Source: Desulfobacterales bacterium (GTDB taxonomy: Bacteria > Desulfobacterota > Desulfobacteria > Desulfobacterales > B30-G6). Taken from it: a DNA stretch of 44,862 nt. Below are positions 1-5,210 of this stretch, piece by piece; position 1 is the first letter of the stretch, and each line of letters opens with the position of its first letter. The position numbers were made by a program, and so were the translations under genes. A model generated the notes under the pieces. The model saw only the letters and a program-made list of their open reading frames with translations. It made no database searches and had not been told where the DNA came from. The stretch lies in assembly GCA_029940035.1 (NCBI GenBank), contig JAOZRT010000003.1, positions 1 to 44,862 of the forward strand, written 5' to 3'.

Positions 1-27
1 CTACATAAATGGCGAATATTACCGTTT

Positions 28-279
28 TGACCAAAGTACAGATACCATCATTATAGGATGTCAATCAAGTATGCCTTTCAAATCAAGAATGTACCCAATA
101 AGCCATGAAATATGATATGATAGTGGCATGAGACCAACCGACCGAATGGAATGCCTGTCGTGTGGATGGAGGGGAGAGGCCCAGGATCTCAAACACCTGA
201 CGGTCAAGCTTCAGGCTTCCCCTATGAACCTGGAAGAAAAAGCCTGCCCGAAATGCAAGAGCATTGCAATAGAAAAGAT
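28..279 (+). repeat. Direct repeat copy A (conserved non-coding block plus zinc-ribbon micro-gene)
   Basis: Ungapped alignment to 3321-3572 (offset 3293). About 33 mismatches in 252 nt by manual count, and only 7 in the non-coding first 94 nt. Confidence 0.95.
113..121 (+). promoter_or_regulatory. Extended -10 element (TGnTATGAT) 6 nt before ATG; probable leaderless promoter
   Basis: TGATATGAT-N6-ATG with no Shine-Dalgarno. Same motif and spacing at 3406-3414 before ATG 3421. Confidence 0.55.
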
Positions 280-310
280 AAATCCCCGCCGCCGGAGTAA
301 GTTGCTGTGA
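128..310 (+). CDS. Small zinc-ribbon protein (CxxCGW...CPxC), 60 aa
   Basis: CLSCGW and CPKC motifs. The paralog at 3421-3600 keeps the frame and all four Cys. Confidence 0.75.
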   Translation: MRPTDRMECLSCGWRGEAQDLKHLTVKLQASPMNLEEKACPKCKSIAIEKINPRRRSKLL

Positions 311-456
311 GGCCCACGGATGATGAAATTGCCCGGGATTATGAATTGTGGATCAAGTACGCCCATGATGAAATTCCGGATGGTGAATTTTATGCAATGA
401 CCATCAAAGAGAAATTAGAGATCATTGTGGCCATTCGAAATACGCCAGTGAGATGA
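307..456 (+). CDS. 49-aa protein resembling anti-CRISPR AcrIE4 (MRPTDDEIARDYELWIKYAHDEIPDGEFYAMTIKEKLEIIVAIRNTPVR)
   Basis: Below the ORF-track cutoff. GTG start overlaps the upstream TGA (GTGA), with GGAG at 294-297. The pattern IAxD[YF]xLWxxY...ExxxxEFxA[ML][TS]xxEK matches AcrIE4 as recalled. Confidence 0.6.
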   Translation: MRPTDDEIARDYELWIKYAHDEIPDGEFYAMTIKEKLEIIVAIRNTPVR

Positions 457-488
457 CCACCCTGCCGGGCAGCACCTATAGCTTGTCC

Positions 489-863
489 TCACTTTTTAAT
501 TGTGATCCTGTCTTCCTGGTTAACCTTCAACCAGTCTTCTGGAGCTTGGATCACATACACAGCCTTCGGATAGATCGCCACATAGATTCCATTATGGTGT
601 TTTTTACAGCTATCAAATCCAGTGGTTTTACAGGTGCAAATGGTGTAGACCGCCGGAGGCTGCTCATAAGCACGTCCTGTGAATACCTGATAATCCATAT
701 CCGGATGAGGTCCGTGCACCTCCCACTGATCATCTTCGTCCATGAATAGATTCCTACGGTGTAACGCCGATCTGATTATTATTAAATTTTCCTTTTCGTC
801 ATCAAAATCCAAATAGCCCATCAAAATCCTCTCTCTCGCACTTGTCTTGGCTGGTTTTGACAT
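489..863 (-). CDS. Hypothetical protein, 124 aa
   Basis: Open frame with protein-like composition, convergent on the 49-aa ORF. No recognised family. Confidence 0.55.
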   Translation of the reverse strand: MSKPAKTSARERILMGYLDFDDEKENLIIIRSALHRRNLFMDEDDQWEVHGPHPDMDYQVFTGRAYEQPPAVYTICTCKTTGFDSCKKHHNGIYVAIYPKAVYVIQAPEDWLKVNQEDRITIKK

Positions 864-1058
864 CCCATTTTATCTGCTATTTTTGAACCACCGGAACCGC
901 AGAGCCAATATAATGATCGATATTTGCACAATATTCACATCAATGATTTCCCGCGTTGCAGTTGCAGGCAGGGTCATGGCCATCGCTATCCCCCCCCATA
1001 GGGTTACTTTTCCGAGATCTCCAGATATACGGCCTCTTAGGAAGTCTTTTCCCTACAG

Positions 1059-1087
1059 TTTGACATGAATCTGGTGGAGTTGTCAAA
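1059..1087. promoter_or_regulatory. Inverted repeat TTTGACA-N15-TGTCAAA (operator and/or back-to-back -35 boxes)
   Basis: Perfect 7-bp arms, each containing TTGACA, upstream of the minus-strand ORFs at 489-999. Confidence 0.4.
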
Positions 1088-1122
1088 AAAGAAGGGGGCC
1101 GGTATTACCGGTCACCCTTTTT
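1085..1122 (-). terminator. Intrinsic terminator, possibly bidirectional, downstream of the lipoprotein gene
   Basis: GC-rich hairpin AAGGGTGACCGGT-AAT-ACCGGCCCCCTT followed by a T tract on the minus strand. A T tract also follows on the plus strand. Confidence 0.7.
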
Positions 1123-1299
1123 GTTATCTGCGGGGGAATCTCCCCGTGTCGACCTGCAGTGCCTATCCCTTTAAAGGCGGTCAAAAGCCTCGGACATATC
1201 CTTCAGAATCTCATCCACCATTTCCATCACTCCACCCAGCAGATAAGATGAGGCCGGGGAGTTTGATCGGAATGCTTATTTTTCAATAGTTATGACTCA

Positions 1300-3204
1300 T
1301 TATTCTACCGATAATTCTTTTGGGGGATAGCGATAGAAACCAGAATCGTCCGTGGCGGTAATATAGAATGTGGAAGCCCCGGTTGGTATTTCAGGATTCA
1401 CAGTTGCGCCAGCTACTTCAAACCAGTCTGTATTGTCAAATCTGTAACGGATTCGATCAACAGGCTTATCAGTTTTAGCGGAACTGATGTAAGTAGCAGA
1501 CACAGAGGAACCATTTGTTTCCAAGGTATCCAACTGTGGTAAATAATCACCATCTATACCAAACCCAAAGTGTCTTTCAACTCCATCACCGGTCCTAATT
1601 CCGATATAAATCGGGACAACATCCTCTATAAAGATTTTATTCCCGTTGTTCAGTGGGTAGATTGGCTTCGTTATATCTAAATACCTAATATTGTAATTAT
1701 AAAGATTTACACTTGTATCATAGTATCCGTCTCCCCGGAGGAGCCGGTTGGCCATTTCACTATCATCCCAGATGGGATTCATCCAGATACCACAATGTAA
1801 AATTGGTGGGTCTTTCAACTCATTCCCATTTACGTCTTCAAAGCGTAACGTAATATGATCAATACGCTTTTGGTCATCAATAAAAACCTGTGGTATCACA
1901 TATACGTAGGTTTGTTCACTAATTTCATGTATATAAAAACTATCCTCATGTGTTTGTTTATTCTGATCATCTCCTACTGTGTATGTGACCGAATAAACGC
2001 CTTCAGGCGCCCTCTCGGGGTCGTAAATAAAGCTTCCAACATAAACAGATATGCCGCTGTTATTGAGAAAACTATCACTAACGTCTAAACAACTTATACA
2101 CAAAGGCAAATTTCCAGTCACAACATTTTGTTTATACTCACATTCATTTGTTCCTTCATTATAACCGAAATAACCATAGAACAGATCAATCTGTTCCGGA
2201 AATTCGACATTGCCGCCTATCAAACCTTGACCTTCGACCAAATCTCGCAACTTATATTCATTTAGATTCGTAGAAAAGATTAAATCATAAAAATCATAAA
2301 AGTCTTGTTCTGTTTTCCATTCTCCATCTCCATCATAGTCGATTGGATACATCACACTGCCATTCTCAAAACTTGTTATAACGTGAGGATCAAATGAATA
2401 ATATTTAGTATATCCCAATTGAAGATCAGCAATGTAGCCGTTTCTTTGACGTTCAATCTGTGTTAAAAGGTGCTCCCACGGCATTCGGCACTTAGTCCTA
2501 TCCTCGTCTGATGTAGGATTAAACGTTATAATGTCCTTCCAATCAATAATGCCATCGCTATTAATATCATCCGGGTGATTGTCTCCATCAAGATCATCAA
2601 CAATTCCATCACCATCTTTGTCCTCACCAATGAGAAACGCTTTAGCTACACATTTTAATACATTTTTTACCTCTTCCGTGCTGATTTCATCTTGTTCATA
2701 AAGGGTGCCGATAGCGTATTGAGACGCCAGCAATAACAAAGGATTAAATTTGGTCGTAAGTTTTAAATCTGATAAATCATGTGCGGAAGGAACAATAAAA
2801 TTGAACTCTATATTATTAAAGGTTGGATCCAAATCACGTTGCCCGTCATCATCAACATCAACATCATATCCTTCTGATACACTAATATAAATTGGTTCCT
2901 CAAGATGGTCTGTTGGGATATCAACTACAAATTCTCCGGCATCATCAAGCAGTTCGGCGTCTTTCGTTGAACCAATCGCAATAGGGCTTGCCTGTTCTCC
3001 GGTCTTGTTGGAATTAATCATATCTTTTGGCAGAAAAATCCTAACGTTTGCCTCGATAATTGGCCCCATGACAACTTGAGCACTAAATGATTGCGTTGAC
3101 TGGCCAGATGCACCGGATCCATCACTGCACCCCAACAAACCTAAAAAACCCAATGCAATCATAAGTCTTGTCAATGTAGGACCGTATTGAATTGCAGCTT
3201 TCAT
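1300..3204 (-). CDS. Large acidic surface lipoprotein with multiple DxDxDG Ca-binding loops, 634 aa
   Basis: GGAGG RBS, hydrophobic signal with lipobox LLGC, and a Ser/Gly linker. Motifs DVDDDG, DKDGDG, DLDGDN, DINSDGIIDWKD and DYDGDG. Visibly AT-richer than the core genes. Confidence 0.85.
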   Translation of the reverse strand: MKAAIQYGPTLTRLMIALGFLGLLGCSDGSGASGQSTQSFSAQVVMGPIIEANVRIFLPKDMINSNKTGEQASPIAIGSTKDAELLDDAGEFVVDIPTDHLEEPIYISVSEGYDVDVDDDGQRDLDPTFNNIEFNFIVPSAHDLSDLKLTTKFNPLLLLASQYAIGTLYEQDEISTEEVKNVLKCVAKAFLIGEDKDGDGIVDDLDGDNHPDDINSDGIIDWKDIITFNPTSDEDRTKCRMPWEHLLTQIERQRNGYIADLQLGYTKYYSFDPHVITSFENGSVMYPIDYDGDGEWKTEQDFYDFYDLIFSTNLNEYKLRDLVEGQGLIGGNVEFPEQIDLFYGYFGYNEGTNECEYKQNVVTGNLPLCISCLDVSDSFLNNSGISVYVGSFIYDPERAPEGVYSVTYTVGDDQNKQTHEDSFYIHEISEQTYVYVIPQVFIDDQKRIDHITLRFEDVNGNELKDPPILHCGIWMNPIWDDSEMANRLLRGDGYYDTSVNLYNYNIRYLDITKPIYPLNNGNKIFIEDVVPIYIGIRTGDGVERHFGFGIDGDYLPQLDTLETNGSSVSATYISSAKTDKPVDRIRYRFDNTDWFEVAGATVNPEIPTGASTFYITATDDSGFYRYPPKELSVE

Positions 3205-3320
3205 GAAACCTCCATGTTAAGAAAACACGGCAAATACTACCTTTTATAGGAAAATGCCCAGGGGATGGCAAGTCAGTTCCTGGATAATTACAATATCTGG
3301 AATATGTTATCAATAATTTA

Positions 3321-3572
3321 TGACCAAAGTACTGATACCATCATTATAGGATGTCAATCAAGTATGTCTTTCAAGTCAAAAACGTACCCAATCACCCATG
3401 AAATATGATATGATCATGGAATGAAATCAACCAACCGAATAAAATGCCTGTCATGTGGATGGAGGGGCGAGGCTCAGGATCTCGAACACCTAACGATCAA
3501 GCTTCAAGCCTCCCCTATGGACCTGGGAAAAAAAGCCTGCCCGCTGTGCAAGAGCATTGCCGTTGAAAAAAT
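3321..3572 (+). repeat. Direct repeat copy B
   Basis: ~87% ungapped identity to 28-279. Confidence 0.95.
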
Positions 3573-3600
3573 CAGGCACAATTACACTCTTTTAAGATGA
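3421..3600 (+). CDS. Small zinc-ribbon protein paralog, 59 aa (MKSTNRIKCLSCGWRGEAQDLEHLTIKLQASPMDLGKKACPLCKSIAVEKIRHNYTLLR)
   Basis: Hand-translated, missed by the 60-aa cutoff. Paralog of 128-310 with a different C-terminal tail. Confidence 0.7.
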   Translation: MKSTNRIKCLSCGWRGEAQDLEHLTIKLQASPMDLGKKACPLCKSIAVEKIRHNYTLLR

Positions 3601-3613
3601 AAGCAAAGGCCCT

Positions 3614-3847
3614 ATGCGTGTTGGAAACATCCGACTCTCAGACAATGCTATGTTAAGAACCACGCTTGGCGCTGTGATGATCAGCTTTTCCGCAGTGTGA
3701 GACGTAGTTTTTTTCGACCGCCATACCTCTACCATGGCGTGGGTCGGGGTGGCCCTATCCCTGGCGGCTATCTACATGGGTGCAACCAGTGGTCAAAAAG
3801 CACCTCAATCACTTCAGCATAGCCACCAGGATAAATATCTGGTATAG
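3614..3847 (+). pseudogene. EamA/DMT transporter remnant with a large in-frame internal deletion and a TGA at the junction
   Basis: Frame reads ...TLGAVMISFSAV*DVVFFDRHTSTMAWVGVALSLAAIYMG. This resembles the first and last TM helices of a DMT protein fused at 3698-3700. Confidence 0.6.
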
Positions 3848-3855
3848 TGACGTTT

Positions 3856-4473
3856 ATGATAAAACACATTGTTAAAAATTTCAGCTGTCTTTTTTCCTTA
3901 GTAATTTTCATTATATCCTGTGCGGGAACAGAACTCACCGAAAAGCCGGTTGAAGATATTTATCATGGGAAGCCCGTATCTGACATTCTTGTCATAGCGA
4001 TTACCGGAAATGAGCACAATCGGCGGGCCTATGAGCAAAAGTTCGTTGCGCGCCTCAAATTTGTTGGTGTTGACGCCATCTCCAGCGAAGCAGTCATCCC
4101 TATGCCTCCAGATTTGGAAATGGAAAGAGAGACCATATTGGATGCGGTTAATCAATACGAAAACGACGCTGTGATCATCACGCATTTGATTGACAAAAAG
4201 GTAGAAGATGTCTACACGCGGGGCGTTACCGGACAAAGAGGCTTCCATGGTTTTTATCTCAGCCGTTACAGTTATGCTTATGATCGGGGATATTCAAGCA
4301 CAAGCACTACGCTCTGGTTGGAAACGAATTTGTACCATGTAAAAACGGATAAACTTATCTGGGCAGGGGTATCAGAGTCATGGGGCAAAAGTTCCCAAGA
4401 ACAGATTGTCGATGAAGTGATCAAGGCTGTGATTGATAATTTACATGAAAATAATTTAATCGAACCAAAATAA
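3856..4473 (+). CDS. Putative lipoprotein (DUF4136-like), ~205 aa
   Basis: Signal peptide with lipobox IISC. C-terminal LETNLYxxxxxKLIW motif typical of this lipoprotein class. Confidence 0.7.
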   Translation: MIKHIVKNFSCLFSLVIFIISCAGTELTEKPVEDIYHGKPVSDILVIAITGNEHNRRAYEQKFVARLKFVGVDAISSEAVIPMPPDLEMERETILDAVNQYENDAVIITHLIDKKVEDVYTRGVTGQRGFHGFYLSRYSYAYDRGYSSTSTTLWLETNLYHVKTDKLIWAGVSESWGKSSQEQIVDEVIKAVIDNLHENNLIEPK

Positions 4474-4658
4474 AAATTGGGTGCGTTGATAACTGCAACA
4501 TCATTGGAACTATATACAATTTTCAGGAGTAGAAAACAGTTCCGGGATCGTCGTCAGACATCTTAACGTTTTTTTTCGAAACCCATTCCCAGTTTTTTGA
4601 GCAGACTGATTGATCCAATAGCCTTCCAGGACAAATCGTTCAGCGTCATGTAAGGACT

Positions 4659-5210
4659 TCAATTCAAGCTACTCAGCTCAATAGCCCCATTCGATGTTCG
4701 ACACGAAACTTTCTTTCCGCCTTCGCCCAACCTGCCACGCAGGGATGTTTTGGAGATTTCCTGGACAACGACTTCCAGGTCTTTAACCGTAATTTTCCCA
4801 TTGGAGTTTTTTGCTTCCAAATCGATGTCCAGCGCTGGATCGATTTTGAGTTCGATGGCACCGTTGCTGGTGCGAACGCGCAAGCCGTTTTCCCCTACGC
4901 CCCGCACGTCCGTTTCTATGGTGCCGTTGGAGGTCTCCAACACGACCACACCGGTGGTCCGCTCAACCCTGATGGAACCGTTGCTGGTGCGGGCGCTCAC
5001 GTATCCTGTGACGTCCTTGATCTTGATGGTACCATTACTTGTACTCGCATCGATATCACCCTTGGAATCCTCAACATCTATAGTACCATTCGAGGTACTA
5101 ATCTCGGTATCACCGTGCGATCCTTTGAGTTCAATTGCTCCATTTGAGGTTCCTACGCTTTTGACAATCACATTGAACGGCACCTTGATGTCGTAGCTCA
5201 CAGAGACCTT
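4659..5210 (-). pseudogene. DUF4097 beta-strand-repeat (adhesin-like) protein, 5'-truncated
   Basis: Repeated TSNGxI motifs. The frame starts at VSVSYDIKVP with no RBS or N-terminal region and runs into the repeat element at ~5210-5221. Confidence 0.7.

Follow-up and report, generated by a model that had tools for sequence, protein, structure and literature searches.

AcrIE4 is an anti-CRISPR protein of Mu-like Pseudomonas phages that targets Cas8e, and its gene is followed downstream by a helix-turn-helix (HTH) gene. In the AcrIE4-F7 study (PMC8887544), the NMR structure contains helices at residues 7-12, 14-21, 29-34, and 37-48 and a hydrophobic core made up of I10, L16, W17, F32, and F48. 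The study also reports that acidic residues in helices 2 and 3 of AcrIE4 mediate its binding to the Cas8e PAM site, that E19K or D22K singly abolishes Cas8e binding, and that Y20A and D30K/E31K weaken it ~18-fold and 24-fold, respectively (PMC8887544). As the AcrIE4 reference, we used the 52-aa translation of Pseudomonas phage D3112 orf31, which scores 135 bits on the Pfam model PF25703 ("AcrF31"); the profile of its family matches PDB entry 7vzm_A ("AcrIE4-F7") with an E value of 2e-28. The AcrIE4 sequence given in a preliminary description of the locus analyzed below agrees with this translation.

In IMG/VR, we found 18 loci with AcrIE4 homologues and inspected 8 of them. At two loci (L026 and L033), the small gene that follows the AcrIE4 homologue is presumably Aca1-like; L026, the one of the two that was scanned, gave a weak Pfam HTH match for this gene (E = 0.003). 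A different small basic gene occupies the same position at two other loci (L037 and L039), while two near-identical loci (L042 and L043) encode a 63-aa protein with four cysteines (Cys4) immediately upstream of the PF25703 gene (57.6 bits). To our knowledge, the Aca proteins described so far are of the HTH type. A second point of comparison is provided by type II toxin-antitoxin systems, whose typical architecture consists of two small overlapping genes with their own promoter and terminator.

The locus reported here lies within a window of 44,862 nucleotides, the whole stretch of DNA analyzed, which starts at the first base of a contig (C150; 54,647 bases) in the 581-contig genome of an uncultured marine-sediment bacterium. 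Two small genes on the forward strand sit near its beginning: a zinc-ribbon-like gene (positions 128 to 310), which encodes a basic protein of 60 aa (net charge, +6; pI 9.6) with an invariant C-terminal tail, and an AcrIE4-like gene (307 to 456), which begins with GTG and encodes an acidic protein of 49 aa (net charge, -4; pI 4.7). The GTG of the second gene (307 to 309) overlaps the TGA of the first (308 to 310) in the sequence GTGA, and a GGAG ribosome-binding site (294 to 297, forward strand) lies inside the zinc-ribbon coding sequence, 9 nt before the GTG. All three features, the GTG-started 49-codon frame, the overlap, and the dedicated GGAG site, were seen just where the preliminary description had placed them. 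That description had also called the frame hidden, whereas an identical 49-aa protein is already annotated in the NCBI/ENA protein collections.

A word-indexed search of 5.8 billion proteins retrieved 12 relatives of the 49-aa protein (73 to 96% identity), all from metagenomes or from a metagenome-assembled genome (MAG) labelled Deltaproteobacteria. Five further family members came from a full HMM search of 1.84 billion representative proteins, giving 17 homologues; the one family member traced to a named NCBI record has the accession MBW2635834.1. Within a 13-sequence alignment of the family, 22 of the 49 residues are invariant, and the most constrained stretch of the subfamily is the H20-Y29 block, with 9 of its 10 positions invariant. 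The stop/start overlap, in the general form RTGA, is present in all copies that retain the junction (8/8; GTGA in six and ATGA in two), and GGAG precedes it in 7/8, the exception being GGAA in L016. Because three of these eight junction copies (C157, L015, and L017) are near-identical, they represent approximately five independent contexts. Across five distinct loci, the 40-codon core of the AcrIE4-like gene shows 11 to 18 synonymous versus 1 to 11 nonsynonymous differences, and dN/dS is 0.01 to 0.12 where dS is unsaturated. Thus, given the purifying selection, the retained overlap and ribosome-binding site, and the homologues found, we regard both ORFs (128 to 310 and 307 to 456) as real, translationally coupled genes. 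The frame and its zinc-ribbon partner are kept together in related loci, and the RTGA overlap indicates, at the level of sequence, that the AcrIE4-like gene is co-transcribed as well as translationally coupled with the zinc-ribbon gene.

Pairwise comparison did not connect the 49-aa protein with AcrIE4: BLASTP against the D3112 protein returned no alignment at E ≤ 100, and PDB sequences searched by phmmer and hmmsearch, with the protein or with its family as query, gave no AcrIE4 match. One match to a PEP-synthase motif in the PDB sequences (E = 1.3) was set aside as chance. Among Pfam models, PF25703 was the top match for the 49-aa protein at a subthreshold score (17.3 bits, E = 0.005, versus a gathering cutoff of 27), and it also matched 5 of the 9 further family members scanned, the best of them (P0004) at 21.1 bits and likewise below the 27-bit cutoff. 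Across 401 genomes of the phylum, PF25703 exceeded its cutoff in none; a single genome (G243) gave a match of 18 bits, also below the cutoff.

Profile methods retrieved the relationship clearly. An hhalign comparison of the family alignment with an alignment of 24 AcrIE4 homologues gave a probability of 96.8% (P = 2.6e-10); the alignment spans 44 columns, is 32% identical (~14 residues), and contains a single gap of two residues. MAFFT applied to 39 pooled sequences reproduced this register, including the gap. The preliminary description had arrived at the same picture, about 14 identities with one small gap. The hhalign score of 43.5 compares with a mean of 9.6 (standard deviation, 3.0; maximum, 29.5) for 200 column shuffles of the family alignment and with 14.6 for the reversed alignment. 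One of the 200 shuffles reached an hhalign probability of 87%, so the probability taken alone is inflated for such shallow, short profiles. In a further comparison, an HMM built from the 24 AcrIE4 homologues scored all family members tested at 21 to 34 bits (16/16), while none of 6,400 residue-shuffled, composition-matched decoys exceeded 10.2 bits on the same HMM.

Searched against 1.84 billion proteins, the family profile yielded eight matches at E ≤ 1e-3, among which two proteins are themselves members of PF25703. The first, P0042 (E = 1.4e-5; 51.6 bits on PF25703), is a 268-aa multirepeat protein that carries an AcrIE4 domain, and its best stretch covers profile positions 2 to 19 only; the second, P0044 (E = 4.8e-4; 48.2 bits), is aligned over profile positions 5 to 43. 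Two other candidates, a 372-aa repeat protein (P0043) and a 14-residue motif match (L021), were dropped as probable chance matches. The match to AcrIE4 is therefore significant by hhalign, by an HMM with decoys, and by a database-wide profile search, and we regard homology between the 49-aa protein and AcrIE4, with high confidence, as established. Within the AcrIE4 anti-CRISPR superfamily, the protein stands on a divergent branch, with ~30% identity and the same four-helix layout; it is not an ordinary member of PF25703, as it falls below the Pfam cutoff and its counterparts of the Cas8e-binding residues E19 and D22 are lysine or deleted. The novelty of this assignment is tempered by the published alignment of AcrIE4 homologues, obtained by PSI-BLAST, whose figure legend (Figure 5A) lists several metagenomic homologues, one of them MBC8457221.1 (PMC8887544); this protein stems from the MAG of a marine "Deltaproteobacteria bacterium" and has a different accession from MBW2635834.1.

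Structure prediction is consistent with this assignment. With the family alignment alone, AlphaFold2 (AF2) predicted three helices (pLDDT 76). With a pooled alignment that included AcrIE4 sequences, it predicted helices at residues 5-10, 12-19, 25-30, and 33-45 (pLDDT 85.8), which map through the alignment offsets (+2, then +4) onto AcrIE4 residues 7-12, 14-21, 29-34, and 37-49 and thus coincide with the four NMR helices. In a VIA-align comparison of the pooled-alignment model, 7vzm ranked first of 48,161 representative chains (Z = 4.6; root mean square deviation [rmsd], 5.0 Å), with 48 residues placed on chain residues 3-53 and the next chain at Z = 3.2. When the family-only model was used, 7vzm was not among the best 50 matches listed. 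Foldseek searches of the PDB with both models, and of BFVD, returned nothing at E ≤ 0.001, and a further structure comparison that covered two PDB chains gave none at Z ≥ 2. The structural match is accordingly supportive but weak, being confined to a predicted model whose alignment itself contained AcrIE4 sequences. The preliminary description had named three outcomes that would count against its reading, namely no significant profile match, no structural match to AcrIE4, and no conservation of the frame in related loci; each was checked, and none of the three was observed.

The two proteins are alike in size (49 versus 52 aa), in the register of their four helices, and in their core, in which I8, L14, W15, and F28 correspond to I10, L16, W17, and F32. 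The fifth core residue, F48, is replaced by R44, so that four of five are retained; K40 of AcrIE4 is also kept (as K36). They differ at positions through which AcrIE4 binds Cas8e. Only Y20 (Y18), the conserved tyrosine of helix 2, and E31 (E27) are retained there, whereas E19 has become a lysine (K17) that is nearly invariant in the subfamily, D22 is lost to the gap, and D30 is replaced by G26. The net charge is -4, compared with -11 for AcrIE4. The preliminary description had cautioned that the protein is less acidic and reads K-Y-A-H in place of the E-Y-x-D segment of AcrIE4; residues and charges bear this out, and given this substitution the target probably differs from Cas8e. The constrained H20-Y29 block falls on the surface with which AcrIE4 contacts Cas8e, made up of helix 3, the loop before it, and the end of helix 2. 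We infer that the scaffold and its working face have been kept but given a different chemistry, and hence a target other than Cas8e.

As to the CRISPR-Cas genes of the host, contig C199 encodes the C-terminal 193 aa of Csd1/Cas8c, followed by Cas7, an inserted RhuM/Fic gene, Cas4, Cas1, and Cas2; Cas8c was assembled only as this C-terminal part. A 724-aa Cas3 is encoded on C402, and C62 carries a Cas3-like gene limited to the HD domain. Cse1/Cas8e (PF09481), the target of AcrIE4, was not found in this 99.9%-complete, fragmented genome, using a model that was positive in only 1 of 14 control genomes, and k-mer scans of the 581-contig assembly found no CRISPR arrays. On the basis of the cas genes on C199 and C402, and with no Cas8e detected, the resident system is of type I-C.

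Our tentative best guess, which we hold at somewhat less than even confidence, is that the 49-aa protein has anti-CRISPR activity against a target other than Cas8e. In this mechanism, a small acidic helical protein would act stoichiometrically, as AcrIE4 does. Its docking face, the end of helix 2 together with the loop and helix 3 that come after it, would sit on a positively charged DNA-binding surface of the target, and DNA recognition by the target would thereby be blocked. Given the replacement of E19 by lysine, the deletion of D22, and the replacement of D30 by glycine, the target would not be Cas8e; most likely it would be the subunit that recognizes the PAM in some other type I system, for which the resident type I-C Cas8c is the obvious candidate. 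The zinc-ribbon protein would serve as the operon regulator, in an Aca-like role, or as a co-factor. We count in favor of this reading the profile homology, the fold, the mechanism of the relatives, the purifying selection, the sporadic accessory distribution, and the resident CRISPR-Cas genes. We count against it the subthreshold Pfam score and the lack of a pairwise BLASTP or phmmer match, the change of both residues whose single mutation abolishes Cas8e binding, the far lower acidity (-4 versus -11), and a structural match that is weak (rmsd, 5.0 Å) and missing with the family-only model.

Genomic context also counts against an anti-CRISPR role. In the window, the gene pair has ordinary chromosomal neighbors: genes for proline dehydrogenase and prolidase, hisD and purH, and the beginning of the cell-wall and division (dcw) cluster, which encodes MraZ, MraW, a penicillin-binding protein, and Mur ligases. 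None of the 26 window ORFs, on a contig that begins at window base 1, and none of the 16 ORFs that flank related loci is a phage, plasmid, integrase, transposase, or HTH Aca gene. The flanks of the related loci vary: a PAS-LuxR regulator, a response regulator, BT1, a dienelactone hydrolase, FolC, a HAD hydrolase, an adenylate cyclase, an RHH antitoxin-like protein, and an amidase were observed. The preliminary description had spoken of an accessory island; what we found is only a two-gene cassette of 0.55 to 1.2 kb among ordinary chromosomal genes. AcrIE4 belongs to Mu-like Pseudomonas phages, whereas the 49-aa family resides on chromosomes of uncultured, Deltaproteobacteria-labelled MAGs, its bearers being such MAGs and metagenomes. 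The family was not found in IMG/VR, where two pattern matches proved to be an unrelated IPDGEFY motif inside a NusG-like protein of 176 to 197 aa. A search of 60 related genomes, of which 3 belong to its genus, a further 11 to its taxonomic family, and a further 46 to its order, detected no true match to the 49-aa family; a weak match (E = 0.004) inside a 564-aa ORF was taken as chance. A pattern scan of the GTDB species representatives gave 26 pattern matches and no relative. The absence from IMG/VR and the lack of mobile-element or HTH Aca genes nearby therefore weigh against an anti-CRISPR protein, as does the setting itself: a chromosomal Acr beside the type I-C system of its own host, under strong purifying selection, would be atypical for Acrs.

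The partner gene differs from that of AcrIE4 as well. AcrIE4 has an HTH gene downstream, whereas the cassette has a zinc-ribbon gene upstream, and the AcrIE4-like gene is obligately paired with it. The 60-aa protein has 10 homologues, and its CxxC motifs, at residues 9-12 and 40-43, are both invariant in the 11 sequences; dN/dS of the gene is 0.08 to 0.20 among distinct loci. Pfam and NCBIfam zinc-ribbon matches (Zn_ribbon_8, DUF7129, and similar models) all lie far below their cutoffs, and a Protein Atlas search of this protein was uninformative. The 63-aa Cys4 protein of the two viral loci mentioned above was considered as a relative and is not detectably related (hhalign probability, 17.6%). 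The cassette resembles an Acr-Aca operon in joining a very small acidic protein to a small, possibly DNA-binding partner, in having its own promoter, and in its sporadic distribution. It differs in that the partner is a zinc ribbon encoded upstream and translationally coupled, with no mobile-element genes around it. The preliminary description had proposed that a CxxC protein replaces the HTH Aca as operon partner. The pairing is conserved and no HTH Aca gene lies nearby; an Aca role for the partner is unsupported, and, judged by titles and abstracts, a full-text literature search for zinc-ribbon Aca proteins returned nothing relevant.

The extent of the cassette was defined by setting it against eight metagenome loci: it comprises ~100 nt of 5' noncoding sequence, the gene pair, and a 3' region of 82 nt. 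Homology among copies, by blastn, covers a conserved 5' noncoding region (28 to 127, forward strand) with cores at 44-69 and 107-120. The 5' homology boundary falls at about 28 to 42, and the 5' core is present in 6 of the 7 copies compared (absent in L019). A promoter-like site (27 to 54, forward strand; TTGACC, 16 nt, CATTAT) was found at this end by a consensus scan, a pattern match only, with 3 such sites in the region versus 2.5 expected. The conserved 3' end (1088 to 1169, forward strand) contains two hairpins, one of them an intrinsic terminator with its stem at 1097-1113 and a T run; it is 82 to 96% identical to the corresponding sequences of C157, L017, and L018, and its folding energy is -33.8 kcal/mol (z = -2.3). 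An Rfam search of window positions 1 to 5000 gave nothing near threshold.

Between the stop of the AcrIE4-like gene and the terminator lies an optional insert of 636 bp (452 to 1087), which carries an orphan ORF of 124 aa on the reverse strand (489 to 863) that has no match in Pfam, PHROGs, NCBIfam, PADLOC, or the Protein Atlas. This insert is present in the window, L014, and L015 and absent from C157, L017, and L018; L016 and L020 have instead a small ORF that, from reading its sequence, we take to be (2Fe-2S)-like. Contigs of four metagenome runs from four studies, which may include the source sample of the window, contained the insert-less joint (450 to 1088) in all four runs. They showed four upstream continuations from 28-42 and three downstream from 1169-1171. 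Together, the two genes form a self-contained cassette that runs from promoter to terminator and recurs in several chromosomal settings unrelated to one another.

The genome contains three copies of the zinc-ribbon gene and two of the AcrIE4-like gene. A truncated second cassette copy in the window (3318 to 3600, forward strand) comprises the 5' region and a zinc-ribbon paralogue with an altered C-terminus (ORF 3421-3600), with the AcrIE4-like gene absent; it is 87% identical to the first copy at the nucleotide level over 25-279, with a zinc-ribbon dN/dS of 0.28. On C157, the AcrIE4-like gene is frameshifted by a 1-base deletion in a C run (codon 9/10), a deletion also found in contigs of three of the four metagenome runs. 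This gene differs from that of the first copy by 1 synonymous and 4 nonsynonymous changes, which fits decay, the differences being too few for a firm conclusion. Zinc-ribbon genes orphaned in this manner, in copies without an intact AcrIE4-like gene, have dN/dS values of 0.18 to 0.29. The pair is a small, patchy cassette that duplicates and recombines. That two of the three genome copies have lost the AcrIE4-like gene and kept the zinc ribbon counts against an anti-CRISPR function as well.

These properties point to another explanation, which we consider a real possibility while doubting it rather more than we credit it: the acidic AcrIE4-fold protein may bind its basic zinc-ribbon partner and either neutralize it or be neutralized by it, as a toxin-antitoxin-like pair or as a regulator and anti-regulator that spread as a small selfish cassette. 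The likeness to type II toxin-antitoxin systems extends to the small overlapping genes (a 4-nt stop/start overlap in 8/8 copies), the promoter and terminator of their own, the opposite charges of the partners (+6 and -4), the several, partly decayed copies per genome, and the patchy occurrence, with absence from the 60 related genomes. The cassette boundaries are sharp in at least four different contexts, both genes are under strong purifying selection, and copies that have lost the second gene keep the first, in the manner of orphan antitoxins or regulators. The multirepeat protein P0042 indicates, in addition, that the AcrIE4 fold also occurs outside stand-alone Acrs. Architecture, copy behavior, charges, and decay fit mutual action of the two proteins at least as well as they fit an anti-CRISPR function. 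However, Pfam, NCBIfam, and PADLOC searches assigned neither protein to a known toxin or antitoxin family (a PADLOC search of six proteins, including the pair, gave no match at all), and neither resembles a known toxin fold. A soluble, acidic, helical protein of 49 aa corresponds to no known toxin type, and anti-CRISPR activity is the sole experimentally known function in the superfamily.

It is improbable that the gene is a functionless, drifting remnant of an old mobile element, such as a degraded acr locus. Two of the three genome copies are indeed degraded, one by the frameshift at codon 9/10 and the other by deletion of the gene, and the frameshifted copy has the 1 synonymous versus 4 nonsynonymous differences described above; the intact copies in five loci, however, have the low dN/dS of 0.01 to 0.12 and 22 of 49 invariant residues, and their start overlap and ribosome-binding site are conserved. 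Least probable of all is that the AcrIE4 likeness reflects convergence or chance between short acidic helical peptides, a view to which the absent BLASTP alignment, the subthreshold Pfam score, the empty Foldseek searches, and the inflation of hhalign probabilities (87% in one of 200 shuffles) lend some color, but which is opposed by an hhalign score far above all 200 shuffles, by the failure of any of the 6,400 decoys to come near the real HMM scores, by the bridges that P0042 and P0044 form to PF25703 at database-wide significance, and by the retention of four of five core residues with all four helices in register.

Whichever activity the 49-aa protein has, its subfamily keeps the AcrIE4 fold while the binding face is rewritten, in a different phylum, in a host with type I-C cas genes, and with a zinc-ribbon partner in place of an HTH protein. 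If, as we tentatively prefer, it is an anti-CRISPR protein, and if Cas8c or another effector is inhibited, one tiny scaffold would have been retargeted across CRISPR types, and guilt-by-association searches would gain, in the zinc-ribbon gene, a new type of Acr-associated gene to look for. Should the 49-aa protein instead act on its partner, this would point to a cellular origin of the Acr fold. A broader, speculative proposal, which we think unlikely at present, is that acting as a phage anti-CRISPR is not an intrinsic property of the AcrIE4 fold, which here would be the acidic half of a chromosomal, self-spreading two-gene cassette and would either act on its partner, in an addiction-like or regulator/anti-regulator pair, or brake the host type I-C system. 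If that were true, phage AcrIE4 and the cellular cassettes would share an origin, and the cassettes would offer a first view of the source of an Acr fold.

The cassette copy on C157 (1861-2185), another contig of the same genome, and the copy in the window (128-453) are mosaic with respect to each other, with a dS of 0.75 between their zinc-ribbon parts and of 0.04 between their AcrIE4-like parts. In L015, a metagenome contig, a 5' half of the C157 type is fused to a 3' half of the window type. This join and the mosaic copies suggest that copies have recombined or undergone gene conversion with each other, or that the assembly is chimeric.

The cassette also varies by an optional insert (452-1087), which lies between the AcrIE4-like gene and the terminator and carries an orphan 124-aa ORF (489-863) on the minus strand, opposite to the AcrIE4-like gene. 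This ORF is present in the window, in L015, and in a second metagenome locus (L014) and is missing from C157 and from metagenome loci L017 and L018; it had no match in Pfam, PHROGs, NCBIfam, PADLOC, or Atlas. The cassette form without the insert co-occurs in all of the metagenome runs compared (4/4). Between the two cassette copies of the window lies a minus-strand gene (1300-3204) for an apparently secreted 634-aa protein, which matched no family (Big_9 was weak, at an E value of 0.12). It is bracketed by two direct copies of the cassette 5' region (28-127 and 3318-3420).

Two related loci have other neighbors. Just 3' of the frameshifted C157 copy is a gene for a 50-aa ribbon-helix-helix antitoxin-like protein (PF20605, 31 bits) at 2350-2502 (2108-2260 of locus L002), followed by a 127-aa ORF without a family match; the two may form a separate TA-like pair. 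Two short minus-strand ORFs (498-916) adjoin the partial cassette of metagenome locus L020. By eye, they resembled pieces of an IS200/RayT-type transposase with a DnaA-like helix-turn-helix; the one that was scanned (501-719) had no Pfam match at an E value of ≤0.001. On C199, a further contig of the genome, the type I-C cas operon (locus L007) is split at cas7/cas4 by a RhuM/Fic-domain gene (2336-3361) and a second small ORF (about 3424-3939), both on the minus strand; some of the bases there are given as N.

The order of the window's gene pair is resembled in two near-identical IMG/VR viral contigs (L042 and L043), where a gene for a 63-aa Cys4 protein (1240-1431) lies immediately 5' of an AcrIE4 homologue (1498-1632). 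The Cys4 protein is treble-clef-like (DUF2116, E value of 8e-4) and shows no detectable kinship with the window's zinc ribbon (hhalign, 17.6%).

Finally, a 268-aa metagenome protein, P0042, retrieved by the profile of the window's AcrIE4-like family, has a bona fide PF25703 domain at its C terminus (51.6 bits) and at least one further degenerate AcrIE4-like repeat upstream. AcrIE4 domains are thus also found as tandem units within a larger protein. The N-terminal motif of P0042 resembles the window's AcrIE4-like subfamily, and its C-terminal half resembles classical AcrIE4.
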